64,000 bases of DNA, taken from Escherichia coli (GTDB lineage Bacteria > Pseudomonadota > Gammaproteobacteria > Enterobacterales > Enterobacteriaceae). Position 1 is the stretch's first letter. Every line of letters starts with the position of its first letter. Positions 1 through 29,302 of this stretch are shown here, in pieces. A program made the position numbers and the translations under genes. Below the pieces are notes generated by a model. The model was not told where the DNA came from. It saw nothing but the letters and a program-made list of their open reading frames with translations, and did no database searches. The stretch is taken from the NCBI RefSeq assembly GCF_011045215.1, contig NZ_CP049201.1, one strand, 5' to 3'.

Positions 1-1
1 T

Positions 2-3500: not shown

Positions 3501-3516
3501 TTTACGGAGTTATCAC

Positions 3517-3972: not shown

Positions 3973-3975
3973 GCA

Positions 3976-5509: not shown

Positions 5510-6483
5510 TCACCTCACCACCAAAACGCGGAATGGCACTGGTCGTGGTGCTGGTATTGCTGACGGTCATGATGATGGTAACCATCACGCTTTCCGGGCG
5601 GATGCAGCAACAACTTGGGCGAACGCGCAGCCAGCAGGAGTACCAGCAGGCGCTGTGGTACAGCGCCAGTGCAGAAAGCCTTGCGTTGAGCGCACTCAGT
5701 CTGAGCCTGAAAAATGAAAAGCGCGTGCATCTGGCACAACCGTGGGCTTCTGGCCCTCGTTTTTTCCCACTGCCGCAGGGGCAAATCGCCGTCACTCTGC
5801 GTGACGCACAGGCCTGCTTTAACCTGAATGCCCTCGCTCAGCCGACGACGGCGTCGCGTCCGCTCGCGTTACAACAATTGATTGCCCTGATCTCGCGCCT
5901 CGATGTGCCTGCTTATCGGGCCGAACTGATAGCCGAAAGCCTGTGGGAGTTTATTGATGAAGACCGCAGCGTGCAGACGCGTCTGGGCCGTGAAGACAGC
6001 GAATATCTCGCCCGCTCGGTGCCTTTCTACGCCGCCAATCAACCGCTGGCCGATATCAGCGAGATGCGCGTGGTGCAGGGAATGGACGCCGGGCTTTATC
6101 AAAAACTGAAACCGCTGGTCTGTGCGCTGCCGATGACCCGCCAGCAAATCAACATCAATACTTTAGACGTCACGCAAAGTGTGATTCTTGAGGCGCTGTT
6201 TGACCCGTGGTTAAGCCCTGTTCAGGCGCGGGCGTTATTACAACAACGTCCGGCGAAGGGCTGGGAAGATGTCGATCAGTTTCTTGCACAGCCGCTACTT
6301 GCTGACGTCGATGAGCGTACTAAAAAACAGCTAAAAACCGTCCTGAGCGTGGAAAGCAATTACTTCTGGCTGCGTTCAGATATCACCGTGAATGAGATTG
6401 AACTGACGATGAATTCGTTAATTGTCCGCATGGGCCCACAACACTTTTCTGTTATCTGGCATCAGACAGGAGAAAGTGAGTGA
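5506..6483 (+). CDS. gspK: Minor pseudopilin GspK
   Basis: 325 aa, N-terminal hydrophobic segment, size and position typical of GspK. Confidence 0.75.
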   Translation: MITSPPKRGMALVVVLVLLTVMMMVTITLSGRMQQQLGRTRSQQEYQQALWYSASAESLALSALSLSLKNEKRVHLAQPWASGPRFFPLPQGQIAVTLRDAQACFNLNALAQPTTASRPLALQQLIALISRLDVPAYRAELIAESLWEFIDEDRSVQTRLGREDSEYLARSVPFYAANQPLADISEMRVVQGMDAGLYQKLKPLVCALPMTRQQININTLDVTQSVILEALFDPWLSPVQARALLQQRPAKGWEDVDQFLAQPLLADVDERTKKQLKTVLSVESNYFWLRSDITVNEIELTMNSLIVRMGPQHFSVIWHQTGESE

Positions 6484-7658
6484 GTTCCATCCTTGAGATT
6501 TTTTTCCCACTTTGCGCCGCTAATCCCATCCGTTGGCAGCGCCGTACTCCCGACGTGGAGCACGGTATCTGGCCTGACGTTGCTGACGAACGTCTCCAAC
6601 AATGGCTGCAAACTGATGCGATTCGACTCTACATTCCCGGCGAATGGATCAGCATCTGGCAGGTTGAACTGCCTGATGTCCCTCGCAAGCAGATACCAAC
6701 TATTCTGCCCGCCTTACTGGAAGAAGAGCTGAACCAGGATATCGATGAACTGCATTTCGCCCCGTTGAAAATCGACCAGCAACTGGCAACCGTGGCAGTG
6801 ATTCACCAACAGCATATGCGCAACATTGCGCAGTGGTTGCAGGAAAACGGCATCACCCGCGCTACCGTCGCGCCAGACTGGATGTCTATTCCTTGTGGAT
6901 TTATGGCTGGCGATGCGCAACGGGTTATCTGCCGCATCGATGAATGCCGGGGATGGAGCGCCGGGCGGGCGCTGGCTCCGGTCATGTTCCGCGCCCAGCT
7001 AAATGAGCAGGATTTACCGCTTTCGCTAACCGTAGTCGGCATTGCACCGGAAGAGCTATCAGCATGGGCTGGCGCAGATGCTGAACGCCTGACCGTTACG
7101 GCTCTGCCCGCCATTACCACTTATGGCGAACCGGAAGGGAACCTGCTAACAGGGCCGTGGCAGCCTCGCGTCAGCTACCGAAAACAGTGGGCGCGCTGGC
7201 GAGTGATGATTCTGCCGATATTGCTGATTCTGGTTGCGCTGGCAGTGGAACGGGGCGTGACGTTATGGAGCGTCAGCGAACAGGTGGCGCAAAGCCGCGA
7301 CCAGGCTGAGAAACAGTTCTTAACGTTGTTCCCGGAGCAGAAGCGGATTGTGAATTTACGCTCTCAGGTGACGATGGCGCTGAAAAAATATCGCCCACAG
7401 GCCGACGATACCCGGCTGCTCGCCGAGTTGTCAGCGATAGCCAGCACCCTGAAATCAGCGTCACTTTCCGACATCGAAATGTGTGGTTTCACCTTTGATC
7501 AAAAACGCCAGACGCTTCACCTCCAGTTGCGGGCAGCAAACTTTGCCAGTTTCGACAAACTGCGTAGTGCACTGGCAACCGATTATGTTGTGCAACAGGA
7601 CGCGTTACAGAAAGAAGGTGATGCGGTTTCCGGCGGCGTAATGTTGCGGAGGAAATAA
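6480..7658 (+). CDS. gspL: Type II secretion protein GspL
   Basis: 392 aa, single central TM segment, position between gspK and gspM. Confidence 0.75.
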   Translation: MSSILEIFFPLCAANPIRWQRRTPDVEHGIWPDVADERLQQWLQTDAIRLYIPGEWISIWQVELPDVPRKQIPTILPALLEEELNQDIDELHFAPLKIDQQLATVAVIHQQHMRNIAQWLQENGITRATVAPDWMSIPCGFMAGDAQRVICRIDECRGWSAGRALAPVMFRAQLNEQDLPLSLTVVGIAPEELSAWAGADAERLTVTALPAITTYGEPEGNLLTGPWQPRVSYRKQWARWRVMILPILLILVALAVERGVTLWSVSEQVAQSRDQAEKQFLTLFPEQKRIVNLRSQVTMALKKYRPQADDTRLLAELSAIASTLKSASLSDIEMCGFTFDQKRQTLHLQLRAANFASFDKLRSALATDYVVQQDALQKEGDAVSGGVMLRRK

Positions 7659-7659
7659 C

Positions 7660-8196
7660 ATGTTACGCGATAAATTTATTCACTATTTTCAGCAATGGCG
7701 TGAACGCCAGTTAAGCCGTGGCGAACACTGGCTGGCACAACACCTGGCGGGGCGTTCTCCGCGTGAAAAGGGCATGTTACTGGCAGCGGTGGTGTTCCTG
7801 TTTAGCGTCGGATATTACGTCCTCATCTGGCAGCCGTTGAGCGAACGGATAGAACAACAGGAGACGATGTTGCAGCAGCTGGTGGCAATGAACACCCGAC
7901 TGAAGAACGCCGCGCCGGATATTATTGCAGCGCGAAAATCTGCCACAACAACGCCTGCGCAGGTATCGCGGGTCATCAGTGACAGTGCTTCCGCGCACTC
8001 GGTGGTCATCAGGCGGATAGCCGAGCGTGGGGAGAATATTCAGGTCTGGATAGAACCTGTGGTGTTTAATGACCTGCTGAAATGGTTAAACGCACTGGAT
8101 GAAAAATATGCGCTGCGGGTGACACAAATTGATGTCAGTGCTGCTGAGAAGCCTGGGATGGTGAATGTGCAGCGGCTGGAGTTTGGACGGGGGTAA
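7660..8196 (+). CDS. gspM: Type II secretion protein GspM (K-12 YghD-like)
   Basis: 178 aa, N-terminal TM helix, last gene of operon; sits 148 bp from the tRNA-Phe remnant, matching my recollection of the K-12 yghD-pheV spacing. Confidence 0.75.
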   Translation: MLRDKFIHYFQQWRERQLSRGEHWLAQHLAGRSPREKGMLLAAVVFLFSVGYYVLIWQPLSERIEQQETMLQQLVAMNTRLKNAAPDIIAARKSATTTPAQVSRVISDSASAHSVVIRRIAERGENIQVWIEPVVFNDLLKWLNALDEKYALRVTQIDVSAAEKPGMVNVQRLEFGRG

Positions 8197-8222
8197 AGTA
8201 TCAGGAGATTAATATCAATAAC

Positions 8223-8251
8223 ATTACTCTCGTTAACGTGGCGAGAGTAAT
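8223..8251. other. Perfect 10-bp inverted repeat (ATTACTCTCG / CGAGAGTAAT, 9-nt loop) after gspM
   Basis: Read directly; no U-run follows, so function as terminator is unproven. Confidence 0.3.
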
Positions 8252-8299
8252 TCCCCCAGACTTTATAAGCTAATTTTTTTCGTGAAGGTTATTGTCAGA

Positions 8300-8332
8300 T
8301 CCAAAAGCAAAAACCCGCCTTGTGGGCGGGTT
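8300..8332 (-). terminator. Rho-independent terminator downstream of the tRNA-Phe remnant
   Basis: GC stem CCCGCC/GGCGGG (8314-8330) followed on the minus strand by TTTTGCTTTTGG. Confidence 0.5.
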
Positions 8333-8343
8333 CTTAAGAATTA

Positions 8344-8362
8344 GTGGTGCCCGGACTCGGAA
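8344..8362 (-). repeat. 19-nt remnant of the tRNA-Phe 3' end (attachment-site core); not an intact tRNA
   Basis: TGGTGCCCGGACTCGGAAT is the reverse complement of the last 19 nt of E. coli tRNA-Phe including CCA; the match stops at nt 20. Confidence 0.65.
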
Positions 8363-8550
8363 TGAAACTGGTTATATAACCAATTGTTTTGTATTGACTG
8401 TTTTGCCTTTGCTGTTTTCGGGGCCACCAATGAGGCCCCCATGTGCAATTCGAATTCTTTTGACGCTATAATCCCTCTTTTTTGTGCTTTGCTGTAATCA
8501 TTTTGTCTGGTTCGATGTGTTGATGCGCGGAGTCGTACTTAACGCATTTG

Positions 8551-9498
8551 TTAGCTGGTCAGAACACTCAATGCTGTTTGTCTGAAACAGGAGTAGGCTT
8601 CTTCCCAGTCAATCTGTGTATTACCAAATACCATCGGTTTAACAAACCGTTGAAAACGCAATTTGTGTACAGGATCATCCCGGAGTGCATCCAGCCCTTT
8701 CTTAAGTTCATCAACTGGTGAGCTACAAAATTGTGGGTACTGGTTACCATAGCGTTCAATATCCTGTTGAATACATATCTGAACAAAATTTTTCAATACA
8801 GGAACATTCACACCTTTTTCCCTGACAATGCAGTAGTTGTCGTAAATGTGACGTACCAGGAACTCATCATCCTGTTGTTCGGGATTACGAAGATGTGCTG
8901 CTGTTCTTCGCATCATGGAGATGAGCTTTTCAGCCTGAGTGGACAAAATGGTGGCACAGGGGAATGCTGTTACAGGTGTACCTTTACCCGTTAACTCCGT
9001 GACAAGTGAATAAATATCTCTGCTTTCCGGATGTTCCAGCAGGGTGCTTTCCATCAACTCCAGCTTAATAAATGGACGAAGACAGGGGACTTGCGCAAAT
9101 GTCTGGGGATAACGTACCGAGATTTCGTTATAACGATACTCATCACGTGTTATACGGGCGTTTTCATTATCCAGGCTGAAAATGTCAGAATTATTAATAA
9201 CATCCGTGATTATTTGCACGATTTTCTTGCGAATTTTTCTTCTCTTGTCTCTGCCATTTTGCATAAAGTTCTCTGTTGGCACGAGCTTTATATCAATATC
9301 TTCTGACATTCTGTTCAATGAGATACCTGCTTTTGACAATGCGGTACCTCCTGCAAACACGAGAGTATGTGTTTCTGGTTTTATTTCTTTTAGTAACTTT
9401 AAAAGATTAACCACAAAATAATCTTTTTCGACGATAGCGACAGATTCAATATCCAGTGCGTTGGCAACGTCAGGAAATAATGATGTTAATTCAGGCAT
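8551..9498 (-). CDS. AbiEii-family nucleotidyltransferase (toxin of an AbiE-type TA/abortive-infection pair)
   Basis: 315 aa with the GGTAL...R.SEDIDI nucleotidyltransferase signature; overlaps the upstream AbiEi-like gene by 8 nt. Confidence 0.7.
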   Translation of the reverse strand: MPELTSLFPDVANALDIESVAIVEKDYFVVNLLKLLKEIKPETHTLVFAGGTALSKAGISLNRMSEDIDIKLVPTENFMQNGRDKRRKIRKKIVQIITDVINNSDIFSLDNENARITRDEYRYNEISVRYPQTFAQVPCLRPFIKLELMESTLLEHPESRDIYSLVTELTGKGTPVTAFPCATILSTQAEKLISMMRRTAAHLRNPEQQDDEFLVRHIYDNYCIVREKGVNVPVLKNFVQICIQQDIERYGNQYPQFCSSPVDELKKGLDALRDDPVHKLRFQRFVKPMVFGNTQIDWEEAYSCFRQTALSVLTS

Positions 9499-9886
9499 TG
9501 ATTTTACTTTTCCCTACAACTAACACTCTTTTAAAGCGAGGAGGTGTTTTGAACTCCGGAGACACCGGAATCTGTGTGGACTGACCTTTATTGTAGCATT
9601 CTGTTGCGCCGATCAAGCTGTATCTGATATTCAAAAGATCCAGGGCTTCGGTGATTACAGCAGCAGAGCCACCAGGTGCTGCAGGCATTATTTTTCCTGT
9701 AATAACGTTGCGACGGGCTTTGGTGTAAACACCATAGCCCACCTTCATCAACTTACCTTCGTTTACCAGTGTACGAAGAGCTCTGCCAACCTGATCATAG
9801 CCAGCGATATCCCTGAAGTCATCCCGGGTGAACACATAACGCTTTGAACGGTTCAGTCGGGACTGAATACGGTCTTTTGTAGTCAT
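9491..9886 (-). CDS. AbiEi-family antitoxin / winged-helix regulator
   Basis: ~131 aa from the ATG at 9886 (GGAGG upstream); wHTH-like N-terminus; operon partner of the AbiEii gene. Confidence 0.55.
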   Translation of the reverse strand: MTTKDRIQSRLNRSKRYVFTRDDFRDIAGYDQVGRALRTLVNEGKLMKVGYGVYTKARRNVITGKIMPAAPGGSAAVITEALDLLNIRYSLIGATECYNKGQSTQIPVSPEFKTPPRFKRVLVVGKSKINA

Positions 9887-9954
9887 GCTTCCTCCGAAAA
9901 ATATTAAGAATGATAGCAACAATACGGCATGTTTAATAGCGGGGCAGGGTCACA

Positions 9955-10803
9955 TTACCTTTCGGTCAATACATTTGGATAGTATTTCTCAATAATATCA
10001 TTAAGCCTGTCAACCAGTTCTGGTTTCCTGAACGTGATGTGTGCGGAGCCCTTCTTAAAGTATCTGATGCTGAACATCTTATCTTCATAGTCCTCTTTAC
10101 CCTGAACAGACTGGATGTGGTCATCCAGATGAATGGTGATGTTTTCCCGGTTGTCGGGGATCGGTTTGCCGCTGAACAGATACAGCATTCTTTCCAGGTC
10201 GGCAAGTCGATCTGCCTGTTGCCCGGTGATAAGATGAAACCCCCACCGGTCCCATCTCACCAGATTGTTGACGATAATTTTACTGCCAAATTTGCAGGGT
10301 GAGTTGGTTTTGTAATCCCAGCTCAGTCCCCTGAAGACGTTGATCACCCCTCGCTCAAACACCTCATCCTTATTCTGGTGCAGTTGTTCAAATGTGCTCA
10401 GGATATTCGCTTCACTGATTTCCGGAAAATTATCATATTCCAGTGACCGGTACCATGTATCACGGGCCTGTGCATCCATTAAGGACAGCATCCCGGAGCG
10501 TTGCATCAGGTCACGCCAGATTTCGCGGTCAAGATTCCGGGTAATGGCTTTCATTGCCGTTTCAGGTTTCTCCATCAGCCAGCAACCGCAGCGAAAATCC
10601 TGTTTCATGGCCCAGTCCAGAGCAGTTTTACCGCCAATACTTTCTGTCATTGCTGATATTTCTGCCAGTTGCCGGATAAGTGTGTCGATTTGCAGCAGCG
10701 TACTCTTTCGTACAGCCAGAATGTGGCGGATACTGGTTGAGCAGATAACGTCCATATGCCCGTTGACCACTTCCGGACGGGGGATTGTGATATCTGACAT
10801 CAT
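9955..10803 (-). CDS. Conserved island protein (DUF4942-like by recollection)
   Basis: 282-aa ORF with coding-like composition, lying downstream of the CbtA/CbeA module as in many E. coli islands; family name not verifiable here. Confidence 0.5.
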   Translation of the reverse strand: MMSDITIPRPEVVNGHMDVICSTSIRHILAVRKSTLLQIDTLIRQLAEISAMTESIGGKTALDWAMKQDFRCGCWLMEKPETAMKAITRNLDREIWRDLMQRSGMLSLMDAQARDTWYRSLEYDNFPEISEANILSTFEQLHQNKDEVFERGVINVFRGLSWDYKTNSPCKFGSKIIVNNLVRWDRWGFHLITGQQADRLADLERMLYLFSGKPIPDNRENITIHLDDHIQSVQGKEDYEDKMFSIRYFKKGSAHITFRKPELVDRLNDIIEKYYPNVLTER

Positions 10804-10884
10804 CGGTTTTCCTTCTTGTCTGTAAATGAAAAGGCCAGCCGTGTTCAGGCTGGCGTCAGTGGAATGAAGTCTGGTGAGTGAGAC

Positions 10885-11082
10885 TCACCGGTTCTGGTGC
10901 AGAAGCTGCAACTGGCGCAGTGTACGGATATCTTCCCTGGCCTGTTCAATGCAGGGCAGCAGTGCTGCCGAATCCGTTTTATCCTCATCGTTGTCAAAGA
11001 TAATTCCCGATTCGCAGTCGATATTGTCCTGCAGCCACGCAATCAGAATATCCAGCGCTGTTTCCGTGGTTAATGATTTCAT
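10885..11082 (-). CDS. Small hypothetical protein (YeeW-like position)
   Basis: 65 aa from internal Met MKSLTTETALDIL...; conserved position after the toxin module. Confidence 0.35.
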   Translation of the reverse strand: MKSLTTETALDILIAWLQDNIDCESGIIFDNDEDKTDSAALLPCIEQAREDIRTLRQLQLLHQNR

Positions 11083-11093
11083 GTTGTTTCTGG

Positions 11094-11582
11094 TTACCAG
11101 TCGAAAGTGGGTAAACCCGGCAGGCATTCAGCGCTGGCATCCAGATGAATGAGACTGACGCCATAACGTCGGGTAAGTGTGACAACCAGACGACGGAACG
11201 TTTTTGACAGGCCCAGGCGCTTAAGCCGCAGAACCGGGTATGACCACGCATCGGTACGTAACAGATATCCGCTACCTGTGAAATGAATCCATTCTGATTC
11301 GCCGGTGTCATTCGTCTGATGTGACAGCGAGTACAGCCAGGCGTTGTCCTTTTCCGTGATATGTGCGGTACTGCAGCGTATGCCGGTAAGGGCAGCAAAT
11401 GGTGGCGTGCAGTCTGCTGAGGTCCGGTCAGATTCATCAACAACACGAAGGGAGTAGCCGTTATCGCAGACCATGTTAATCAGTTCAGCGAGCTCAATAC
11501 CATCAACGTCAACGACAATGCGCCCCATGTTCAGTGCCTGCACGTTAATGCTGTCGGCTTCCAGCGTCAGGGCCAGTTTCAT
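11094..11582 (-). CDS. Hypothetical protein co-transcribed with the cbtA-like toxin
   Basis: 162 aa; its ATG overlaps the toxin stop codon (ATGA overlap). Confidence 0.5.
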
Positions 11583-11956
11583 TGTTTCGCCCCCGGATGT
11601 TTACCCTGGGTAATGTTATTTACCGTTCTGTAGTTGTCGCGTGTCATCAGGCCGGTTGCCCGGCGTGCCCGGAGGATATCGATGCTGTTTATTAACTGAG
11701 AACGGGTACAGGCGCTGAATCCCGGCTGGTCGGTACGCACCAGCGCGTATTTTTCCACGAGAAAGTTCACCGCATCACACAGTGAAATGCCAGCTTCAAT
11801 ATGCTGCTCAATCACACGTTCATCAGCGAACGGTGTGTCATTCAGTGTGAGACCGTAATGCTGGTCCAGCAGTCGGGTGAGCAGTGTCTGCCAGATGGTG
11901 ACGGGAGACGGGCAGCGCGATGCCTCCCGTACGTGTGTGTCAGGTAATGTTTTCAT
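11579..11956 (-). CDS. cbtA: CbtA/YeeV/YpjF-family toxin (cytoskeleton-targeting, type IV TA)
   Basis: 125 aa from MKTLP...; long near-identical stretches to recalled YeeV ([52 protein letters not shown]...). Confidence 0.85.
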
Positions 11957-12002
11957 CTTAAGTTCTCTGTAACTGGTAGTGCTAAAGGTGAGATATTCGG
12001 GG

Positions 12003-12377
12003 TTATGAGGTGGTTGCGGGTGCCAGTGTCGAATAAACAGCCATATAAACGTAACCACAGCTGCCGAGGGTGTCGGCTTCGCAGGTCAGCCCTCTGGCAT
12101 ACAGCGTGACGGTATGCTGATGGCGGGGATTCAGTTCACCGCTGGTGAGCATGAGTTCCAGTTGTTTCATCAGCAGCGGAAAGGCCTGGTCCAGATGATA
12201 CGCATCCGCGTCGCTAAACTGCCCCCTGATACCGGCGCGGTCGGCAAGGTAATGCAATTGATTGCCCTCCTGCACCAGACGTGCCCCGAAACAGGGCGTC
12301 ACGGTGCAGGGGAGCCCCCACCAGGGGCGGTCGTTGTTGTCGTTGGGATAATTTGTCACATGGAGTGTGTCTGACAC
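12003..12377 (-). CDS. cbeA: CbeA/YeeU/YfjZ-family antitoxin
   Basis: 124 aa; [23 protein letters not shown]...GELNPRHQH motif block; immediately upstream of the toxin. Confidence 0.85.
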
Positions 12378-12452
12378 GATAAAATCCTCACAAAAAAATC
12401 AGTTAAGAATGGTCCGGTGGCAGCGATAATTCTGCTCATCATTTCTCCTGAC

Positions 12453-12674
12453 TCAGTTCAGTGTGACGCTCATCAGCCGGACATACGGGCCAAAACTGTC
12501 CTTACGGCGTTCTGCAAACACGGCCAGCACACCGGGAATATCCTGCACTTCACGACCGGTATACGCCTCAGCACTGCCGTGCCAGCGGTATTTGCCGGTA
12601 CAGAACGGAAAAAGACGGGATGCAGGATGTTGTTGGTGAATACGCATGGCTTCACCACGGGTGATAATTTTCAT
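12453..12674 (-). CDS. yeeT: YeeT-like small protein (DUF987)
   Basis: 73 aa, MKIITRGEAMRIHQQHP... essentially as recalled for YeeT. Confidence 0.75.
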   Translation of the reverse strand: MKIITRGEAMRIHQQHPASRLFPFCTGKYRWHGSAEAYTGREVQDIPGVLAVFAERRKDSFGPYVRLMSVTLN

Positions 12675-12742
12675 GGTGGGATACCTCTGAAGACAGAAGA
12701 TAAAAGTGAAAACAGGTGTGATGTGGTTGTGACGGTGACGGG

Positions 12743-13219
12743 TTAAAGCAGACCGTGTTCCGCAAAGGAGAAAACCTGGTTGCCTCCGACTATCAGATGG
12801 TCCGGCACCCGGATGTCCACCAGGGCCAGCGCCTGTACCAGACGTTCGGTGATAAGCCGGTCTGCCTTACTGGGTGTGACTTCACCGGACGGATGATTGT
12901 GTGCCAGCACCACGGCTGCGGCATTGTGATACAGGGCGCGTTTAATCACTTCCCGGGGATGGACTTCCGTGCGGTTGATAGTGCCGGTGAAGAGGGTTTC
13001 ACCGGCAATCAGCTGATTCTGGTTATTCAGATACAGCACCCGGAATTCTTCACGCTCCAGTCCCGCCATGTTCAGAATCAGCCATTCCCGTGCCGCATGC
13101 GTGGAGGTGAAGGCCACGCCGGGTTCATGAAGATGGCGGTCCAGGGTTTTCAGGGCCCGCTGAATGAGACTGCGCTCGCCGGGCGTCATCTCTCCGGGCA
13201 GAAAGGAAAGCTGTTGCAT
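12743..13219 (-). CDS. RadC-like JAB/MPN-domain protein (YeeS/YfjY family)
   Basis: HNHPSG JAB metalloprotease motif; ATG at 13219 (ORF track extends to 13234). Confidence 0.8.
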   Translation of the reverse strand: MQQLSFLPGEMTPGERSLIQRALKTLDRHLHEPGVAFTSTHAAREWLILNMAGLEREEFRVLYLNNQNQLIAGETLFTGTINRTEVHPREVIKRALYHNAAAVVLAHNHPSGEVTPSKADRLITERLVQALALVDIRVPDHLIVGGNQVFSFAEHGLL

Positions 13220-13234
13220 TGCCCCTGCCTCCAT

Positions 13235-13720
13235 TCAGTCGATGATGCGCATAATGGCGCTGCATTCCGGATGTTGCAGGGCGTAATCCCGCAACCGATA
13301 ATAATGGACCGTCATGGCATAACACTCCGTACGACAGGCATGATGACTGTACGTCATCAGACAGGCGGCAATGCCGGCGGCTTCCGGACTCATTTCAGCG
13401 CGGTTACCGTTCATGGCATTGAACAGTACCCATGTTTCGTCATCATCGTCATCCGGTTCGGGTGCCATAAATGCCCCGCCGTTGTTCAGGGTGTACAGAT
13501 TCCAGATACCACCGCAGTAGTCTTCGCACAGACGGTCCATCCAGCCGAAGACACGGGGTTCCAGGGTCACCCACTGTGGAATGAGGCCAAAGTGCTGCGG
13601 CCAGAAGCTGATGCGCTGTTCATCAGGGACGGGAGTGGCAACCAACTGAGACTGGTTATTCCCTGATGCAGTAGTTACGGAAACAGAAGGTGTGGTGGAG
13701 CTATGCGAAAAGGTTGTCAT
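13235..13720 (-). CDS. Antirestriction protein (YfjX/KlcA-like)
   Basis: 161 aa, acidic stretch EPDDDDDETW, conserved position upstream of the RadC-like gene. Confidence 0.7.
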   Translation of the reverse strand: MTTFSHSSTTPSVSVTTASGNNQSQLVATPVPDEQRISFWPQHFGLIPQWVTLEPRVFGWMDRLCEDYCGGIWNLYTLNNGGAFMAPEPDDDDDETWVLFNAMNGNRAEMSPEAAGIAACLMTYSHHACRTECYAMTVHYYRLRDYALQHPECSAIMRIID

Positions 13721-13811
13721 GAGATGATTCCTTATAAAAAGTAAATGAATGGAAGAATGCCTGGGGATTGGTACAGACGTGAGTCAGGGCTGCACTTTCA
13801 GGGAAACAGCA

Positions 13812-14630
13812 TTAGCGCATGCTCTCCAGCAGCGTTTCTGCCATCACCCACAATGCGCGATTGAGCTTAATGTCCGTGTCGATGCTGTGAATGGCACGGG
13901 TGTGGATACGTTTTCCTTTAGCGCTGCGACCGGAAATTCCGCCTTTCAGCATATTCTCCTGAATGGTCTGATAAGCACTCCACAGGTCCTTACCGTAATC
14001 CTCCCTGCGTCGTGGTGTCAGAATGTCGGCGGTGGTGACGGGCTGATGTTCGTCACCATAACGGTAAGTCAGTGCCGCCTGTGCCAGCGCCTGGTGTGCC
14101 GGTGGCGGCAGAATCAGCGACTGCATGGCATCACGCTTTTCCTCAATCCGGTCAAAAACCCCCACCACCTCGTAAGCCCCTTCAATAACTTTCTCCACCA
14201 CATTTCCCCGGTGTGGAACACGCAATTCTCCCAGAGACTGACCGCAGACCAGTCCATTGGTACAAATGGCACGAAAATATCCGGGTAACATCTGGTAGCT
14301 GGATGAACCGTCATGGGAGTTGAGCAGAATAATTTCAGGGACATGCTGACCGGTTATCTGTCCGGCCCGCCGTAGACGCAGCATGTGTTTTGTGTATTCC
14401 CGGCGGCTCTGGTCGCGCACGCGGGTCTGGCAGGCAAAGAACGGCTGAAAGCCTTCCTTCTGCAGACTTTCCAGCACGGTGATGGTGGGGATCCAGGTAT
14501 AGTTCTCGCTTCTGGATGTGTGCTTATCTTCCCCGAATACGCTGGGAACGACCTGTATCAGTTCTTCGCGAGTTAAGGGGCGATCACGGCGTATCTGGTT
14601 TGCATAACCAAAACGACTTGCTAATCGCAT
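13812..14630 (-). CDS. DUF932-family protein (YfjQ/YafZ-like)
   Basis: 272 aa; size and position in the conserved module. Confidence 0.65.
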   Translation of the reverse strand: MRLASRFGYANQIRRDRPLTREELIQVVPSVFGEDKHTSRSENYTWIPTITVLESLQKEGFQPFFACQTRVRDQSRREYTKHMLRLRRAGQITGQHVPEIILLNSHDGSSSYQMLPGYFRAICTNGLVCGQSLGELRVPHRGNVVEKVIEGAYEVVGVFDRIEEKRDAMQSLILPPPAHQALAQAALTYRYGDEHQPVTTADILTPRRREDYGKDLWSAYQTIQENMLKGGISGRSAKGKRIHTRAIHSIDTDIKLNRALWVMAETLLESMR

Positions 14631-15016
14631 GATTTGCTCCTTATGAATGAGTTAGCGATATAAATGAAAAAGCCGCGTCTTGCGGAGAAGACGCGGCCTG
14701 ATGGGTGAAATGAATGACGTTTATTGTCTGAGAAACCCTTCACTGGCGAGCCACACATTAAGCTGTTTTCCGGCGTCAGACTCAAAATTCCAGCACCGCC
14801 AGCGTAGCTGCCCTTCAGCATTACGGATAACCCGCCGGAAATGCGTTCCCTGGTCATTTTCGATAAACACATTGCAGTAAGCTGTTGTGATGGTAAGTGC
14901 CTGTTCGCGAGAGAAGGACTTTCGGGTAGTAAACGGGACATATGTTTTGCAGAAGAAATCAGAGAAAAACGCCACCAGTACGGTGGCGCCAGTAATGAAA
15001 TAAATACAAGGATATA

Positions 15017-15556
15017 TTACTGAGGTGAGTTATCCCGGGGACGGGAGTCAGGCTCACCATAAATTATCCGGTGTTTTGCCAGCGATTCCGGCATGGTATT
15101 AATACAGTAATTGATGTAGAAAATGTGAAATAAAAATGTCCATACCGGATTCATTTTTAATTCAAAGCGGAACTGTGTCAGCGCATATTGTTGCAGAGCC
15201 GTTCTGGCTCTGAAAGCCCAGATGATGGTGAGGATAATCCAGACCAGTGAGATCAGCGTGGCAATGCCGTACATGGTTTCAGCACCGCGGCTGTAACCAT
15301 AGACGTCACCGTATTCGTCGATCTGAACCGGAAAAGCCATTTTCAGCATGGCGGATATTCCCAGGCATACTGCCATCCAGATAATCATTGCAGGAGAGGA
15401 GAATCGCTGACGGGTTTCATCCATGATGGTATCCTGATATTTATACAGCCACATCAGTGGATAAACACCATATGTGGCGGCTCCCAGTAATACCAGATGC
15501 CATGTGGATGTATTCAGTTTTTCTTTTAACGATGAAATAGTGGAATCATTCATCAC
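15017..15556 (-). CDS. Hypothetical inner-membrane protein
   Basis: 179 aa with about four hydrophobic helices; no family recognised. Confidence 0.45.
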
Positions 15557-15615
15557 GGTTTCCTTATCATTAATTACGTGTGTGGAATTTTCAGAAATAA
15601 AATATTGTGTTGTTT

Positions 15616-16917
15616 TTAGCGGACTGCTTCTCCTCTCACAGTGTAACCTTCAATAAAATTAGCCATATCCTCGTTGTCTTTGTGGCTGTTGTCAGGGAAC
15701 TGCTCAATGGCGAACAATTCAGAGAAAGTATTTCTGCAGTTCAGGGTGGCAATCCGGGTTCCCTGGTTAAACACGAGAATGCCATCAAATGCCGGTGTTT
15801 CTCCGTCGTAGCGCTGCACAACCACATAGTCGTATGAACCTTTATGAAAACGCAGATATTTCAGTTTTCCTTTACCCCGGTTAAGATCGCGCCAGTAATG
15901 AAAGGCACTGACGCCAAACATACCTTCTTTTAATTCCAGCTCCAGCGTGCCGTCTTTTTTGAGAAGGTGGTAGGTGTAGGGAAAACCATCCTGTGCAAGA
16001 ACAGACAGAGCCTTACCGTTTGTGAGCGTACAGTCTGCCAGTGCTGTCGCCGGGATCGCAGATTGCGAATCAGGTGCTGCTGGCCTGGCTTTTTCCGGTT
16101 CAGGGGGATTTTGCTCCCCGGACCCGGTATCGGTTTTCCCGGGAGAAGTGACGGTGGCATCGTAAGCCGGCGTCTGAATACGTGTATCCGGTGGATTGTT
16201 ATCGGCGTCATTAAAACGCTTTGTCGTTGATGAATAGCCTGCCTGTTCGTTGGTGTAGCCGCCTGTAGGCATCCGTGATTTCTTACGCCATTCTCCATTC
16301 ACTTTTTCATACCCGGATTCTGTCATCATCCGTTCCTGCAGACTGGTGATTTCTGTTTCAGGGGAGTGCGGTTGCCTGTCCCCGGAATACAGAAACTCGT
16401 CCAGTGTCATCTTTTTGTTCTTCCGGGTATCCGTGTGGATGAGAGATTTCGGAATAAATGTCTTACAGGCTTCGGTGAAGTTACCTTTACGGAAAGTGGC
16501 CGTTTTCCCTTCAATGGTAACGGTTGCTCCCATGAAGTGTGTGAAAGCCGGTATGGCACGGGCTGCCATATCCGGCGCTGCACGGGGGGTATCCCCCAGC
16601 GTCACCATTCTGCGAAATCCCGTGGCGCTGTTACATACCATGAGAGATTTCCAGGTCTGGTCGTTGATTCTGGTAGTGATAAAGCGGGTTCCCGGAAAAT
16701 CGAGATTATCCGGACATCCCTTGTCCATGCTCATAAAAACCATACCTTCATCAGAAATGAGGGCAGTTTCATTTCCTTCACTACTGATGGCCTGGCATGC
16801 GCCGTTTCTGATTTCCCAGTTGTCGGTAAAATAGTCGCAACCGGTAAGAACGGATATTGCCGAAGCTATCATCAGGGAATGACGTAATACCCGCATGTTC
16901 AGTTTTTTGTTCAGCAT
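15616..16917 (-). CDS. Hypothetical lipoprotein
   Basis: 433 aa; signal peptide ending in lipobox LTGC; Pro/Thr-rich linker in the middle. Confidence 0.5.
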   Translation of the reverse strand: MLNKKLNMRVLRHSLMIASAISVLTGCDYFTDNWEIRNGACQAISSEGNETALISDEGMVFMSMDKGCPDNLDFPGTRFITTRINDQTWKSLMVCNSATGFRRMVTLGDTPRAAPDMAARAIPAFTHFMGATVTIEGKTATFRKGNFTEACKTFIPKSLIHTDTRKNKKMTLDEFLYSGDRQPHSPETEITSLQERMMTESGYEKVNGEWRKKSRMPTGGYTNEQAGYSSTTKRFNDADNNPPDTRIQTPAYDATVTSPGKTDTGSGEQNPPEPEKARPAAPDSQSAIPATALADCTLTNGKALSVLAQDGFPYTYHLLKKDGTLELELKEGMFGVSAFHYWRDLNRGKGKLKYLRFHKGSYDYVVVQRYDGETPAFDGILVFNQGTRIATLNCRNTFSELFAIEQFPDNSHKDNEDMANFIEGYTVRGEAVR

Positions 16918-16959
16918 ATTGTCTCCATACCTGTCGGAACGGCTTTGGCAGGCCGGCGA

Positions 16960-17640
16960 TCACAGGTTAAAGGTGTTGATAAGTTTATGGATGAAAGGGA
17001 AATGTGGCAGAGCGGAGATAAAACGCTCTTCAGCGACCAGACTGTGGATGTGGTCTCTCCGTTCAAACCGTTCTGATGTCAGGCTGACCGATTTGATGTC
17101 TGCCAGGGGAAAGACCCGCAGTTTTTCCTTCTGTAACGCGATCAGATACCAGCTTCCGCTGTAATAAATGAGCCGGCAGGGTTCCAGTGACGGATACCAT
17201 TGCTCAGTCACCAGCGAGATGTGGATGCACTGTCTTATTGCCAGGATGAGTTGCGAGAAACACTCGGGGAGTGTTGCAGTGATATCCGGCGCCGGTAGCC
17301 AGATAAGGCAGGGAGAGGGCTCCTGGTTGTCGGTAAGACAGGTTATCAGTCGTCCGTTCCGGAGCGGAAGTATCCGTGCGATCCCCGTATTCTGTATAAA
17401 TGAAAGCATTTCAGGGAGCGCGCCCGGGTTGCTCTGCCGTCTGAGACTGTACCGGCCATTTCTGTACTCTAAGTCCAGGTGAACCAGACGCTGATGAAAA
17501 TCGCGCTGTAAGGTACGTTCTGTAACACCAAATTCATCTGACAGTGTTTTTAGTGACAGAGATTCTCCGGCCATCAGTCGGCTGATAATGAGTGATAAGC
17601 GAACCGCCAGGCGATCATGCCGGGAACGATTATCAGACAT
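16960..17640 (-). CDS. HTH plus WYL-like domain transcriptional regulator (YfjR-like)
   Basis: 226 aa; N-terminal HTH (LKTLSDEFGVTERTLQRD), C-terminal WYL-like segment (YYSGSWYLIA). Confidence 0.65.
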   Translation of the reverse strand: MSDNRSRHDRLAVRLSLIISRLMAGESLSLKTLSDEFGVTERTLQRDFHQRLVHLDLEYRNGRYSLRRQSNPGALPEMLSFIQNTGIARILPLRNGRLITCLTDNQEPSPCLIWLPAPDITATLPECFSQLILAIRQCIHISLVTEQWYPSLEPCRLIYYSGSWYLIALQKEKLRVFPLADIKSVSLTSERFERRDHIHSLVAEERFISALPHFPFIHKLINTFNL

Positions 17641-17842
17641 AGATGTGTACTCCGTAAGAAAACATCTTTTATTTCATGATGTTATTATGCATCATGATGT
17701 TGAAAGGATGTGTCGTATCCGAATCATCAGGAATAAAATGCAGCAGAAAAAATATTCCTTTAATTATCTGATTTTTAAGCAGGGTCTCATAAAAAGAAGA
17801 ATGCTTGTTAATCCAGCGACACATCCTGTCGGCGTGAGTGTG

Positions 17843-18727
17843 TCAGAACAGACGATCCCACAGTGTGACCAGCAGGTGGATAATGCGGTCCCGGGCCTTA
17901 CGCAGAAGCTGTAACATCCAGGCCGGAAAGCTGAACCGGGCAACGGTGTCGTCAAAGCTTTTCCCGATGGCGTCACCAAAAGTTTGTTGTGCGTGTTTCC
18001 GGGTCTGTTCAGAGCGGTTTTCCCTCCGGATATGTGAATAAACCGCGCTGGTTGCCTGTGGTGGCAGTGCGTGGATCATCAGCGATACCAGTGCCGGAAG
18101 ATTCCAGCCGACAGGTGCAGCAACGGAGAGTACCGGAAATGATGAAGGGAACAGGGTTGCCACCCGGGCTGTTACTGTTGCCAGTGAGAGTTCCTGCTGA
18201 CGGGACGGGCATTTTTCTGTGTCGTTCCATTCTTCAGCAGGAAACACGCGATCGGCATGGCTGAGAACAAACAGAAAACGCGAGGGATCTGCACCTTCAT
18301 TCAGTAAAAACTGATGCATGGCAATATCAGCAGCATACGCACGTTCATCACTCCGCAGGATCCAGATAATCAGATCCAGTTCCGGTAGCAGCTGACGATA
18401 AAGTGTCCGGTATTCCTGATCATGCTGCGGTGTTTCACCAATGCCGGGCAGATCGACCAGCGTCATTCTGTGTTCACCGAGCTGCAGGGTAAGACGATGA
18501 GCCTGGCGGGTGCAGCCGTTCAGAGGATGTGTGGCGCAGATACGGGACTGAAAAATGGCATTACACAGACTGCTTTTGCCTGTGCCGGATTTACCCATAA
18601 TGCCAATCACGGGCTCGTAATGAATAACACCGTGGAGATGTTCAAGGATTTTCTGGCGAATTTCTTCAGGAAGAAACGTCAGATATGATTTCACTTGTGC
18701 GGAGAGGGAAGAATGGCTGAATGACAT
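17843..18727 (-). CDS. YeeP/YfjP/YkfA-family GTPase
   Basis: 294 aa; G1 P-loop GKSGTGKSS; first gene of the conserved leftward module. Confidence 0.8.
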   Translation of the reverse strand: MSFSHSSLSAQVKSYLTFLPEEIRQKILEHLHGVIHYEPVIGIMGKSGTGKSSLCNAIFQSRICATHPLNGCTRQAHRLTLQLGEHRMTLVDLPGIGETPQHDQEYRTLYRQLLPELDLIIWILRSDERAYAADIAMHQFLLNEGADPSRFLFVLSHADRVFPAEEWNDTEKCPSRQQELSLATVTARVATLFPSSFPVLSVAAPVGWNLPALVSLMIHALPPQATSAVYSHIRRENRSEQTRKHAQQTFGDAIGKSFDDTVARFSFPAWMLQLLRKARDRIIHLLVTLWDRLF

Positions 18728-18911
18728 ACCGTTATCCTGTTGATTTCGCTGAACCGGATCACACTAATCCGGTTTATCATTCATGTAATATGGACGTGAA
18801 AAATGATGGAATGTCTGAATTACGGACATGATTGTTAAAGTGTAATGGAGTATGAAGTGAGTTTTTCCGAACGGGAACTAATGACATACTGCGGTTTCAG
18901 GAGATGAGAGG

Positions 18912-20042
18912 ATGACCGGACGTAAAAACAAATGTGTCAGAAAAAATTGTAACAATCAGGTTTTCTCAGTAAAAATGGCAGTGGAGAAAAGACTGTGCAG
19001 AAAACATTATGAGAGGTTTTGTGAGCTCAAAAAAAGAAGAGAGCAAAATCCTGTTCACAGATTAAATGAAGCATTGCCAAGAAAGATAAAAGAACCCAAA
19101 AGTAAGAAAAAATTAGTAAAAGAAAGAGAAATCATTAACAGCAGAAAAAAACATAAACAGGAGCAGGGACCATCGCTGGCTGAACTTAATAAAAAAGTTC
19201 GTGAGATACTGAAAACTCCGGCATGGAGAACGCTGGAAACGAGAATTCGAAGAAATGGCATCACATTTAAGTCAAAAGCAGAGTTAGATGCGCTTTCTGA
19301 ACTTTATGCAATTTATTCATGGGTTTCATATTGCAAACGGGGCGATAATTATTCTGTGTGGTTTTTGAATTGTCCGGATGTAAATATAAATCTTCATGTG
19401 TGCGAATGCCGGTCTTCTGAAAGCGATTGTTATCTGCCATCCCGTTTTATTATCCTCCCAGCTCCATTAAGGCAAAAAGTAAAAAGAAAATACTCTGCTA
19501 ATTCGTCTGGGGTACCAGGACATAATGATTCAAAAAGTCTTTATAAGACAGTTTTGTCTGTTTGTGGTGGGAAAAGAGAAACCGAATTGTTCTTTTATTC
19601 ACTGCCAGTAAAGACTAATCATCATCCTTACTGGATTAAAAGTGGTGTGGTTAAAAGATTTTCTCCTGTTTTTGGTTTGTTGTTTTATGAGCAGGAAAGG
19701 TTAACAGGAGGTGTTTTTCGTTATGTGTTGATAAGGTTTTATAATACTTTTAAGGAGAATTTGTTTTTTGTTGAGATTGTCTCGTGCTGTTTTCTTGTTG
19801 AGCTTTTTCATGATATTGATTCGTTTTTTATAAATCAACGATTAAGTAAGCTTGAAAGTTTTATAGATAAGTGGAAGGAGGGTAAAGAAATCTGGATAAA
19901 AGCATATCTACAACTTATACATAATACATTGGGAATAACTGAAACAGAAAAACTCGTCAATCTATATAATTCATTTTTTACTGATAAAGTGGTTCTCTGG
20001 GATGAATCAGTAAAAAAAGTTAAGTGGATTTATGAGAAATAG
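18912..20042 (+). CDS. Hypothetical protein, Cys/His-rich basic N-terminus, AT-rich gene
   Basis: 376-aa ORF; N-terminal C-x4-C-x15-C-x2-H-x4-C then a Lys/Arg-rich stretch; no family recognised. Confidence 0.4.
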   Translation: MTGRKNKCVRKNCNNQVFSVKMAVEKRLCRKHYERFCELKKRREQNPVHRLNEALPRKIKEPKSKKKLVKEREIINSRKKHKQEQGPSLAELNKKVREILKTPAWRTLETRIRRNGITFKSKAELDALSELYAIYSWVSYCKRGDNYSVWFLNCPDVNINLHVCECRSSESDCYLPSRFIILPAPLRQKVKRKYSANSSGVPGHNDSKSLYKTVLSVCGGKRETELFFYSLPVKTNHHPYWIKSGVVKRFSPVFGLLFYEQERLTGGVFRYVLIRFYNTFKENLFFVEIVSCCFLVELFHDIDSFFINQRLSKLESFIDKWKEGKEIWIKAYLQLIHNTLGITETEKLVNLYNSFFTDKVVLWDESVKKVKWIYEK

Positions 20043-21576
20043 TACCATTTAACTGAAAGCCACCATAACGTCTTTTTGATTACATTCATGATAATGCATC
20101 TCATTTTGTTTTCGTTTTTTTGTTCAGGGAAATTTTCCGAACATCAGTGATAATGAGGGTTTTGTTGTTTTTGTTTCTGCAATGTTTGAGGGCTGTTCCT
20201 GGAGATGATTCGTTGTTTGTGAGCAAGAGGTGGTCCGCTTTTCTGGACAAGTTTTGTATTTGTTGAGTGGTGAAATGGAAGTAAAAAGAGCCCCTTTCTG
20301 GCAATGACTGAAAAAGTCAGTAGCGTGTGACAGTAAAAACTAACATAAAGTGATTATCGTATGATTATGACAATAACTTATAACTTTTATGAAAAGAATA
20401 ACAGAAACTACGAGGCCATAGCAGATTCCTGAGATCATGTTTTCTGAGGTAGAGAAAATAATTCCAGAGTAAATCTGTTCTGTTTTTAGGACAGAAAACT
20501 CCATGTTGGCTGTAAAAGTGAAAAATCAACACCCAGTATGCATGGATGTCTGAAGATGTTGAGAATGTCGGTATGATACTATATACACATATTTTACTCA
20601 GTATTTTTACTAAGCATTTCAGTAAGTGTTATACACGTATTTTCATAAACAATTCTACAAGTGTTTTCATTAAGTATTGTTATACACATTGCTTTGTCTG
20701 ATACACATCCAGTTTAGTAAATTTGTTAGTCCTGTTTTTACGATAGCTAAAATCAGTTAACGTCACTACAAAACTCCCTGTCCTGTTTAAGCAGTCAATA
20801 TGCTATTCGATTTTACTGATGTTACATTTAACCTTTTATGAGTTTTCGTGTTTTTAGTCGTTAACCTGAGACAAGTGTTTTTATGTAAAACGCAAATCCG
20901 GCTGAGATAACCTGGCGTGATTTACTGTGTGCTTACGATGATTTTGTTAAATGGTTTTATAGATGATTTTGTAGCAATGAGATTGATGAGATGATTAACT
21001 GGCCCTGGTGTTTTTTCTCAGCGCAAGGTGATTATCTTCATCATAAGGCTCTTTTCAGGAAAAGCGTGATGATTGGTTCTGGTGTTTTGATTCAGATGAG
21101 ATTTACGTTATTGATGGTTAATCGTTTTTATGGTGTGTTGAAAAGTAACGTTTTCAGGATAAGAAAATCGATTCTGATATTGGTGGTTTTTGTTCTTGTG
21201 GCGGGGTTATCTGTAAACAGGTTTTAAGCGCGCTATTCGGCTCTGTGATTGAGTTGTGTGGTTAAGCTGTAGGTTTTGGTGTTGTTGTTGATTTACAGAG
21301 CCAGAAAGCGTTCTGATTGCGTTTTTGGTGTTTTGTTTGTACGTTCTGTGGATCCGTTTCCCTTCTGACTTTTCTCGTCGTCCATGTCGTTTTTAAATCC
21401 ATTCATGCTGTTGTTGCGTGTTTTGTTGTCGTGTGCAGGATTATCTTTTCGTTACGGGACGATTCATTCCGTTTTAATCAGGAGCTATTGGCGTTGCTCA
21501 TTGGTGGGATGCCGTAAAGTTTTACCGCGGCGATTAATGATGTGAAGTCAATCCAAATCAACGGAGATCTCTCATC

Positions 21577-22308
21577 ATGAATCAACCAATACACAATGCT
21601 TACTGGTTATCCCGTTTTGAAAGTATTCTCAACAGTGACCTGGTGCAACACCTTGCCGTTTCGTTAATCCGGGTGGATTTACGTTTCCCTGAGTATATGC
21701 CTGCCAGCATCATGGATACCGATTTAGATTCAGCGGTGATTTCTCGTTTTTTCGAATCCCTGAAAGCCAAAATCCAGGCTTACCAGCGGAAAAAACGACG
21801 TGCCAACAAGCGTGTGCGTGCAACCACTCTGCGTTATTTCTGGTGTCGGGAGTTCGGCAAGATGTATGGCAGGAAACATTATCACGTGATATTACTGCTC
21901 AACAAAGATACCTGGTGCTCGCTCGGGGATTTCAGCGAACCATCTTCGCTGGCGACGCTGATCCAGCTGGCATGGTGCAGCGCTCTGCATCTTGAGCCCT
22001 GGCAGGGTAATGGACTGGTTCATTTTTCCAGGCGGACTTCTTTCCGTCAACCGACTTCATCTGATGCTCCCCCTTCTTCCGATGATACGCCTTTGCCAGG
22101 TGGATGCTCTGATACCAGGAAGGCTTCTGACAAAAAATCTGGTGGATCCGCTGTACTCTGGGTCACGCGTGGTGATGTGGAAGCGGTACAGAAAGCCATG
22201 GAGAGAGCCCTTTATCTCGTGAAGTATGAGACGAAGCAGCATGACGGTTCAGGTCAACGTAATTATGGTTGCAGTCGTGGGGCGGGGCGTCTACTGGATG
22301 GCAGGTGA
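21577..22308 (+). CDS. YagK/YfjJ-family protein (inovirus Gp2-like by recollection), paralog 1
   Basis: 243 aa; shares block pattern with the three ORFs at 26673, 27467 and 28641 (R.DL.FP..., HYH.hLL..., ALYL.KY). Confidence 0.55.
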   Translation: MNQPIHNAYWLSRFESILNSDLVQHLAVSLIRVDLRFPEYMPASIMDTDLDSAVISRFFESLKAKIQAYQRKKRRANKRVRATTLRYFWCREFGKMYGRKHYHVILLLNKDTWCSLGDFSEPSSLATLIQLAWCSALHLEPWQGNGLVHFSRRTSFRQPTSSDAPPSSDDTPLPGGCSDTRKASDKKSGGSAVLWVTRGDVEAVQKAMERALYLVKYETKQHDGSGQRNYGCSRGAGRLLDGR

Positions 22309-22389
22309 ACCCGGTAAAATGGCATCCGGTGCCTGAGCATACGTCACGTAATTAACTGTCTTGACCAACAAAATTATGGAGTAACCTGA

Positions 22390-23042
<653 letters not shown>

Positions 23043-23064
23043 TATTGCCCATTCTTGCTAATGT

Positions 23065-23102
<38 letters not shown>

Positions 23103-29204: not shown

Positions 29205-29302
29205 CTGCCACATCTGATTTCGGGTGTGTTTCGGCAAGGTTGTTCAGTAAGGCATTCCTTCGTAAAATCAGCCTGTTTTTTGCACGACGGAAACCGGCAG
29301 CC

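Follow-up and report, generated by a model that had tools for sequence, protein, structure and literature searches.

The genomic islands of Escherichia coli carry, in most genomes of the species, a string of genes leading from a GTPase to the CbtA/CbeA toxin-antitoxin pair. One copy is located on the minus strand at 9955-18727 of a stretch of 64,000 nucleotides of E. coli DNA (contig NZ_CP049201.1), hereafter termed the window, and it contains, between a regulator and a gene of the DUF932 family, two genes coding for a lipoprotein of 433 residues and a DUF4234-like membrane protein of 179 residues. A sequence-only reading of this DNA had described the pair as inserted into the module, and the question raised by the locus is whether both genes are newcomers or native to their position and which role they might play there. 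Our analysis, concerning anatomy and evolution of the locus, makes it very probable that the pair constitutes a rare and probably ancestral allele of a native variable slot for envelope proteins and not a recent insertion. The explanation as a whole, where the pair is one allele of a native, regulator-linked envelope cassette with a putative protective role, has in our estimate about even chances of being correct.

In the window, the gspD-gspM operon (with gspM also named yghD) covers positions 1-8196 with 98.8% identity to E. coli chromosomes, and island DNA extends from about 8200. All genes that had been named in the sequence-only reading were recovered at the same positions from open reading frames (ORFs) and Pfam matches. 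The GTPase, DUF932, antirestriction, RadC/JAB, DUF987, CbeA and CbtA genes form an ordered set on a single strand, each gene being supported by Pfam and the order being matched to that of the K-12 islands CP4-6, CP4-57 and CP4-44, so that the description as a stereotyped island module holds. The part of the module that surrounds the pair contains the following features.

17843-18727, minus strand: first gene of the module, coding for a GTPase of the YkfA/YfjP/YeeP type (Pfam MMR_HSR1, 7.4e-15; RefSeq homologues named 'GTPase family protein')
17641-17842, minus strand: intergenic region upstream of the regulator, presumed to hold its promoter and operator, with inverted repeats at 17674-17681/17690-17697 and 17641-17651/17657-17667
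16960-17640, minus strand: YfjR-like regulator with helix-turn-helix (HTH) and WYL domains (Pfam WYL, HTH_11), first gene of a presumed operon
16872-16959, minus strand: conserved junction that marks the right breakpoint of the variable cassette (blastn) and comprises the stop codon of the regulator, a ribosome-binding site (GGAG) and the beginning of the lipoprotein gene (ATG and first ~15 codons)
15616-16917, minus strand: predicted inner-membrane lipoprotein of 433 residues (sequence, alignment, AlphaFold model)
15017-15556, minus strand: putative polytopic inner-membrane protein, DUF4234-like (PF14018 below threshold, hydropathy, names of RefSeq homologues)
14968-14990, minus strand: terminator-like hairpin with a 10-bp stem, six GC pairs and a T-run (pattern scan), presumed end of the regulator operon
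14927-16871, minus strand: variable cassette of 1945 bp (blastn breakpoints against the common variant)
14721-14975, minus strand: DUF905 protein (YkfF-like), with the left breakpoint of the cassette at the 5' end of its gene (Pfam DUF905, 2.8e-22; 50% identical to K-12 YkfF)

Of 5426 complete E. coli genomes, 17 contain the 2-kb cassette, in all cases on the chromosome and with identities of 97.8-99.1% among the full-length matches listed. Another 107 E. coli genomes match the cassette query solely in the junction at 16872-16959. Parts of the module backbone are present in 5042 genomes, and a genome having any contains them at a median of three places. In the commonest arrangement with the same flanks, the slot is occupied by a single gene coding for a secreted protein of 225 residues (WP_186217403.1 in strain EC21Z-147), a pattern shown by 20 out of 60 rows sampled at even spacing from the E. 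coli ranking, about one third of the sampled records. The flanks of this common variant are the same in kind as in the window, with 93-94% DNA identity, and the exchange is delimited by breakpoints at 14926/16872 of the window and 7939/8712 of the EC21Z-147 locus, which enclose 1945 bp here and 772 bp there (blastn). In contrast to the lipoprotein, the 225-residue protein carries a signal of the signal-peptidase-I type without a lipobox and a B-domain in place of linker and C-domain, and it is not accompanied by a DUF4234 gene.

Both occupants of the slot are paralogues that share a homologous N-domain, which in the 225-residue protein aligns with residues 6-155 of the lipoprotein (BLASTP E 1.7e-12), including the positions of C41, C68, C95 and C151. 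An alignment of the N-domain with a family member consisting of this domain only reached 99.9% in hhalign. From the lipoprotein gene, the common variant has kept the ribosome-binding site, the ATG and 14 codons (MLNRKLNIRLRHSL) as a remnant that is located upstream of the 225-residue gene and in the same reading frame. Since this N-terminus is shared with distant homologues of the lipoprotein in our alignment, it would belong to the lipoprotein family, which makes the rare state observed in the window most simply the older one, and the lipoprotein allele is thus probably ancestral at this site. As a separate observation, the reading frame of the 225-residue gene in EC21Z-147 continues upstream for 35 codons (8649-8754 of locus L002), and this extension begins at the fossil start codon of the lipoprotein gene.

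Homologues of the pair reside in the same slot also at larger evolutionary distance. In another E. coli lineage (locus L008), a lipoprotein with 48% and a DUF4234 protein with 70% identity are located between a WYL regulator and DUF932, and equivalent pairs are found on a metagenome contig (L006; 35% and 61%) and in Serratia (L011; 36-42% and 60%). Compared to the window, the flanks at the three loci show identities of 57-69% for the GTPase, 54-69% for the regulator where present and 70-76% for DUF932. Because lipoprotein homologues of 35-48% identity thus occupy the same slot between diverged flanks, the pair has diverged together with the module. The version on the metagenome contig (5990-9844) contains no WYL regulator, its GTPase being followed directly by a gene of the 225-residue type, the lipoprotein and DUF4234, which illustrates that the regulator need not accompany the slot genes.

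The constituents of the lipoprotein are found in various combinations. An island at proBA (L015) contains an N-domain-only gene beside a C-domain-only gene, whereas in Kluyvera (L023) the slot holds separate genes for the N-domain and the B-domain together with DUF4234. At locus L024, N-, B- and C-domains are united in a lipoprotein of 487 residues that is followed by DUF4234, and at L016 a WYL regulator is followed by a run consisting of a lipoprotein and of one protein each with an N-domain and a C-domain. The slot draws on a small and hitherto undescribed set of domains (N, GY hairpin, B and C), which are fused or split depending on the island. An EcsC-like protein of ~235 residues, absent from the window, is encoded directly upstream of DUF905 or DUF932 at L016 (6624-7343), L023 (8079-8774) and L024 (11634-12350).

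In the islands of K-12, the equivalent position is filled as follows.

CP4-57, after yfjR: ypjK, yfjS (inner-membrane lipoprotein) and yfjT
CP4-6: yafY (inner-membrane lipoprotein) and ykfB, then ykfF (DUF905)
CP4-44: flu (Ag43)

The lipoprotein and membrane protein of the window, whose presence in the canonical modules had been named in the sequence-only reading as evidence that would overturn it, were found in none of the three islands by BLASTP and hhalign. Neither of the two proteins shows a significant match to YpjK, YfjS, YfjT, YafY, YkfB, YeeR or Flu in BLASTP at E<=10, and hhalign comparisons of the N- and C-domain profiles with YpjK, YfjS, YfjT, YafY and YkfB remained below 1% probability. 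With these values YfjT/YkfB, YfjS/YafY and YpjK were rejected as candidate remote homologues of either domain. The synteny comparison proposed in that reading has thus confirmed the absence of the pair from K-12, where the slot contains different genes for envelope proteins, a lipoprotein and a membrane protein among them. CP4-57 and CP4-6 resemble the window in the general make-up of this slot, where a YfjR-type regulator precedes genes for a small membrane protein, a lipoprotein of the inner membrane, a secreted protein and finally DUF905 (in CP4-6 in the order (ykfK/L)-yafY-ykfB-ykfF). They differ in their cargo, which has no detectable homology to that of the window, and in the location of DUF932, which precedes the regulator in K-12 but follows the cassette in the window. 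CP4-44 (yeeP-flu-yeeR-yeeS-yeeT-cbeA-cbtA) shares the backbone and a large envelope cargo after the GTPase, whereas Ag43 is an outer-membrane autotransporter without homology to the proteins of the window and the WYL regulator is missing. Within K-12, YafY and YfjS are near-identical slot alleles of two islands (BLASTP). The place behind the regulator is thus a regular site of variable cargo, which codes for envelope proteins.

The recent history of the cassette is reflected in the comparison with strain C51, where the region 15000-20400, comprising DUF4234, lipoprotein, regulator, GTPase and the next gene, is 97-99.5% identical, followed by a dip to 79.8% at 20401-20800. In contrast, the multi-copy part at 10000-14900, from DUF932 to DUF4942, shows only 86-95% identity and a mosaic appearance, and the sharp change near 14900/15000 suggests that this half of the module recombines often among paralogous islands. 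The variant carrying the pair adjoins yghD both in the window and in C51. In two other strains it is located next to cadC, together with an integrase remnant, and it therefore travels with the island. These two locations we take to be the pheV and pheU sites. At the breakpoints of the cassette, we found neither repeats nor genes of mobile elements.

Together, these observations bear on the possibility that two foreign genes have recently been inserted into an otherwise canonical module, which would be consistent with the rarity of the pair, with the lack of homologues in the K-12 modules and with a GC content of the cassette that is slightly below that of its flanks (47.3% compared to 50-52.5%). 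A recent insertion would, however, account neither for distant homologues in the same slot between co-diverged flanks, nor for the homology of the N-domain to that of the common occupant and the fossil start of a lipoprotein gene that is retained in the common variant. It is equally at odds with breakpoints that are devoid of repeats and mobile-element genes and with the single haplotype block that unites the cassette with regulator and GTPase. We thus regard a recent insertion as largely refuted and improbable, and the designation of both genes as inserted is not supported.

The properties of the 433-residue protein are those of a lipoprotein with a Pro/Thr-rich linker, as had been recognized in the sequence-only reading. 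Its N-terminus contains a positively charged n-region with Lys and Arg residues and the hydrophobic h-region SLMIASAISVL, which precede a lipobox L24-T25-G26-C27 conforming to the pattern [LVI][ASTVI][GAS]C and an aspartate at position 28. This signal is retained in all full-length homologues of our alignment, with G26 being invariant and L24, C27 and D28 nearly invariant. An aspartate in position +2 after the lipid-modified cysteine is a classical signal for retention in the inner membrane, and the product is predicted to reside in the periplasm as a lipoprotein that this residue keeps at the inner membrane. The structure prediction has shown an organization of two confident domains that are connected by a disordered linker. 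In the AlphaFold model used, which is based on an alignment of 48 sequences (mean pLDDT, the predicted local distance difference test score, of 77.8), the N-domain (~33-160, pLDDT >90) is all-beta and contains Cys41, Cys68, Cys95 and Cys151. It is followed by a helix and a beta-hairpin (GY hairpin, 186-212, pLDDT 83-90) with the conserved motif GYEK-x-G-x-W-x-KK, by the linker (213-290 in the model; residues 213-292 contain 14% Pro and 14% Thr), which is predicted to be disordered (pLDDT <50), and by a nine-strand C-domain (~291-425, pLDDT >90) that is bracketed by Cys296 and Cys394. The cysteines of both domains are conserved across genera in our alignments. A first model obtained from 12 sequences, with a pLDDT of 54.6, was left out of the fold search.

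The lipoprotein has no assigned family in Pfam, NCBIfam, PHROG or PADLOC, and an exhaustive profile search has identified only 78 relatives among 1.84 billion representative proteins. A Foldseek search of the model against the PDB did not detect a significant match (best E 0.029), whereas the equivalent search of a viral structure library returned two confident matches to uncharacterised proteins of ~150 residues from the jumbo phages EL and PhiEaH1 (E 5e-6 and 2e-5), whose size would fit a stand-alone form of the C-domain. No match was obtained by tblastn of the lipoprotein against phage and plasmid collections. Compared to other E. coli alleles, the ratio of non-synonymous to synonymous substitution rates (dN/dS) amounts to 0.16-0.33 for the lipoprotein, which is the fastest-diverging of five genes compared, and to ~0.1 or lower for the DUF4234-like protein. 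Both genes of the cassette are under purifying selection, and these values, together with the presence of homologues in several genera, indicate that they are real genes and not chance ORFs.

For the second protein, an ORF of 179 residues that is reduced to 178 residues with the RefSeq-style ATG at 15553, the proposed location in the membrane is supported by two strongly and two weaker hydrophobic segments in its hydropathy profile and by a near-threshold match to DUF4234 (PF14018; 24.4 bits at a cut-off of 25.3). This sub-threshold score is its sole match across Pfam, NCBIfam, PHROGs and PADLOC, with no family assigned in the latter two, and many close homologues either carry a precomputed PF14018 match or are named DUF4234 in RefSeq. 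Near full-length DUF4234 homologues of 33-35% identity are encoded by jumbo phages of Aeromonas, and among the neighbours of the respective gene in Aeromonas phage D3 we found neither an N- nor a C-domain. A relationship to the C-domain emerges in Yersinia, where a protein of 270 residues containing this domain (hhalign 95%, E 4e-8) is encoded 2 nucleotides upstream of a DUF4234 gene, within an integrase-linked island that contains neither the GTPase nor the regulator. The close spacing of this pair outside of the module suggests that C-domain and DUF4234 work together, with a coupling that is frequent but not obligatory. A DUF4234 homologue of 295 residues (P0052) was considered as a possible Rosetta-stone fusion and rejected, as its N-terminal extension is unrelated and its neighbours are unrelated lipoproteins. 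In the literature on DUF4234 and on the island module, we found nothing functional. Two unrelated integrase-linked loci, that of Yersinia (L010, 5944-6234) and L018 (2036-2368), each of which also contains a DUF4234 homologue, additionally encode small proteins in which zinc ribbons at both termini enclose a glycine-rich and hydrophobic central part.

The assignment of the upstream gene as a YfjR-type regulator is based on its HTH and WYL domains and on 42% identity to K-12 YfjR (BLASTP E 1.5e-50). Its WYL domain scores 27.5 bits in Pfam (cut-off 21.8) and 2.6e-19 with the PADLOC WYL model, and HTH_11, with 23.2 bits, is placed just below the cut-off of 25. Regulator, lipoprotein and DUF4234 genes follow each other on a single strand with gaps of 42 and 59 nucleotides, and the terminator-like hairpin is located 27 nucleotides past the stop codon of the membrane protein and thus inside the variable cassette. 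The short gaps and the hairpin with its T-run directly after the second gene suggest that the pair is cotranscribed with the regulator. A weak sigma-70-like match is found on the minus strand at 17790-17763. In K-12, genomic systematic evolution of ligands by exponential enrichment (gSELEX) is reported to assign YfjR a single target, its own operon (PMC8249747).

In the mechanism that we propose, the YfjR-like regulator would control an operon whose products act at the periplasmic face of the inner membrane. There, a two-domain protein that is anchored by lipid and equipped with a long flexible tether of ~75 residues, together with a small polytopic DUF4234 partner, would alter the membrane surface and so protect the host of the island, either by the exclusion of incoming phages and mobile DNA or by the neutralisation of toxins that act on the envelope. 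WYL regulators often control defence systems, and the island contains an AbiE pair, CbtA/CbeA and an antirestriction gene. Such conflict genes, the fast evolution of the lipoprotein and the shuffling of its domains, the many alleles of the slot, the relatives in phages and the presence of a WYL regulator make protection at the level of the envelope the likeliest of the functions that we have considered, although it remains a tentative proposal drawn from context. A still more speculative extension, which we consider doubtful, regards N, GY hairpin, B and C domains together with DUF4234 as a toolkit that sets the specificity of exclusion or immunity against phages, mobile DNA or toxins; if true, it would explain why so many mutually exclusive slot alleles are found in islands that are present in multiple copies. 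Envelope proteins of mobile elements with a role in exclusion or immunity include the entry-exclusion lipoprotein TrbK of RP4, membrane proteins for superinfection exclusion in phages and the four-helix immunity proteins against pore-forming colicins. The pair resembles them as small, fast-evolving and allele-rich proteins that are encoded on mobile elements and predicted to be located in the inner membrane or anchored by lipid in the periplasm, with the DUF4234-like protein corresponding in size and topology class to the immunity proteins of the colicin A type. This likeness is an analogy in design only, as neither PADLOC nor Foldseek detected a relation in sequence or fold.

Several points weigh against this explanation. 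Neither cassette protein belongs to a family in PADLOC-DB 2.0 or PHROG, the PADLOC matches among the cassette proteins and their described neighbours being limited to the regulator (WYL) and, weakly, the GTPase (LeoBC). The dN/dS values of close E. coli alleles show no sign of positive selection, and near-identical alleles in two K-12 islands argue, for the YafY/YfjS type, against a strict exclusion of one island by another. Cotranscription and terminator are suggested at the level of sequence patterns, a promoter scan performed no better than on shuffled sequence, and chromatin immunoprecipitation with exonuclease digestion (ChIP-exo) found no DNA binding for YfjR of K-12 (PMC8464067). Finally, the polarity of the exchange assumes the 14 shared codons to be native to the lipoprotein family, while they could also mark a recombination junction.

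Other functions appear less probable than protection. The pair might act as a factor for surface interactions, adhesion or biofilm formation, in analogy to Ag43, which is encoded by flu in the equivalent position of CP4-44, and the long Pro/Thr-rich linker does resemble the stalks of surface proteins. The label 'biofilm formation' that has been given to the yfjR operon (PMC8249747) points in the same direction, but the corresponding prediction for YfjR was not validated (PMC8464067). Since the aspartate that would retain the lipoprotein in the inner membrane is nearly invariant in the family, and neither Pfam nor the model reveals an autotransporter or outer-membrane beta-barrel domain, we consider a surface factor unlikely. 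About equally unlikely is a periplasmic sensor or modulator of envelope stress, where the barrel of the C-domain would bind a ligand or partner and signal via DUF4234 or pathways of the host. YafY, the lipoprotein of the K-12 slot, activates Cpx upon overproduction (PMC6538781), which lends this idea an analogy, but otherwise it relies on a weak resemblance in fold. The possibility that both genes are decaying, functionless remnants carried along with the island recalls the frameshifts that affect neighbouring module genes elsewhere, namely DUF4942 (strain C51) as well as the regulator and DUF905 (other strains). Neither ORF is, however, disrupted in the window or in the three further carriers of the pair (of 17 E. 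coli genomes) whose annotation was read, and with purifying selection acting on either gene and domains and cysteines being conserved across genera, this explanation is disfavoured and highly improbable. An envelope-level protective role thus stays our preferred, if tentative, functional interpretation of the native cassette.

Should the cassette turn out to be protective, the islands would possess a further layer, at the level of the envelope, in addition to their other genes for defence and anti-defence; otherwise, the result is a corrected annotation and evolutionary history. Proteins previously listed as hypothetical become a defined unit, with a dedicated and exchangeable envelope slot and an undescribed domain family, some parts of which are also found in jumbo phages.

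The remainder of the module, downstream of DUF905, comprises the following genes.

13812-14630, minus strand: DUF932 protein (YafZ/YfjQ-like; Pfam DUF932, 9.6e-48)
13235-13720, minus strand: antirestriction protein (Pfam Antirestrict, 2.4e-37)
12743-13234, minus strand: RadC-like JAB protein (Pfam RadC, 3e-45)
12453-12674, minus strand: DUF987 protein (YeeT-like; Pfam DUF987, 5.4e-40)
12003-12377, minus strand: antitoxin of the CbeA/YeeU type (Pfam CbeA_antitoxin, 2.2e-54)
11579-11956, minus strand: toxin of the CbtA type (Pfam CbtA_toxin, 1.8e-63 on the ORF 11579-12058, with the domain starting from residue 35, which corresponds to the RefSeq-style start)
11094-11582, minus strand: DUF5983 protein (Pfam DUF5983_N and DUF5983)
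10885-11082, minus strand: small DUF957-like gene (the syntenic gene of C51 is annotated as DUF957; the ORF of 80 residues has no Pfam match at E<=0.001)
9955-10803, minus strand: DUF4942 protein, last gene of the module (Pfam DUF4942, 7e-68)

The module abuts yghD/gspM, and ARAGORN detected no tRNA gene in the window. A search of Rfam over 8000-24000 revealed no RNA family and no isrC-like small RNA. In the interval that separates yghD from the DUF4942 gene, at 8551-9922 on the minus strand, the window encodes an AbiEii toxin (315 residues) and an AbiEi/DUF6088 antitoxin (143 residues), a place on the yghD side that is taken by a ParDE pair or by a gene with an EAL domain in other strains. 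On the opposite side, an ORF of 376 residues with a GC content of 34% (18912-20042, plus strand) is divergent from the GTPase, which it adjoins in both slot variants, and it has no match in Pfam, NCBIfam, PHROG or PADLOC. Further along, a protein of the YagK/YfjJ type (21577-22308), which is related to the inovirus Gp2-like replication proteins, and a DUF3987 protein (23479-25083) are typical of the replication and primase region of these islands. A protein of 970 residues (29240-32152) shows weak matches to UvrD-like helicases and ankyrin repeats, of which no single stretch is significant alone, and it is possibly encoded by a defence gene. Farther along the island follow a transposase of the IS66 family (40242-41780), a chaperone-usher fimbrial operon with an usher of 858 residues (43714-49700) and a 3'-phosphoadenosine-5'-phosphosulfate (PAPS) reductase/DUF3440 protein (62201-63451).

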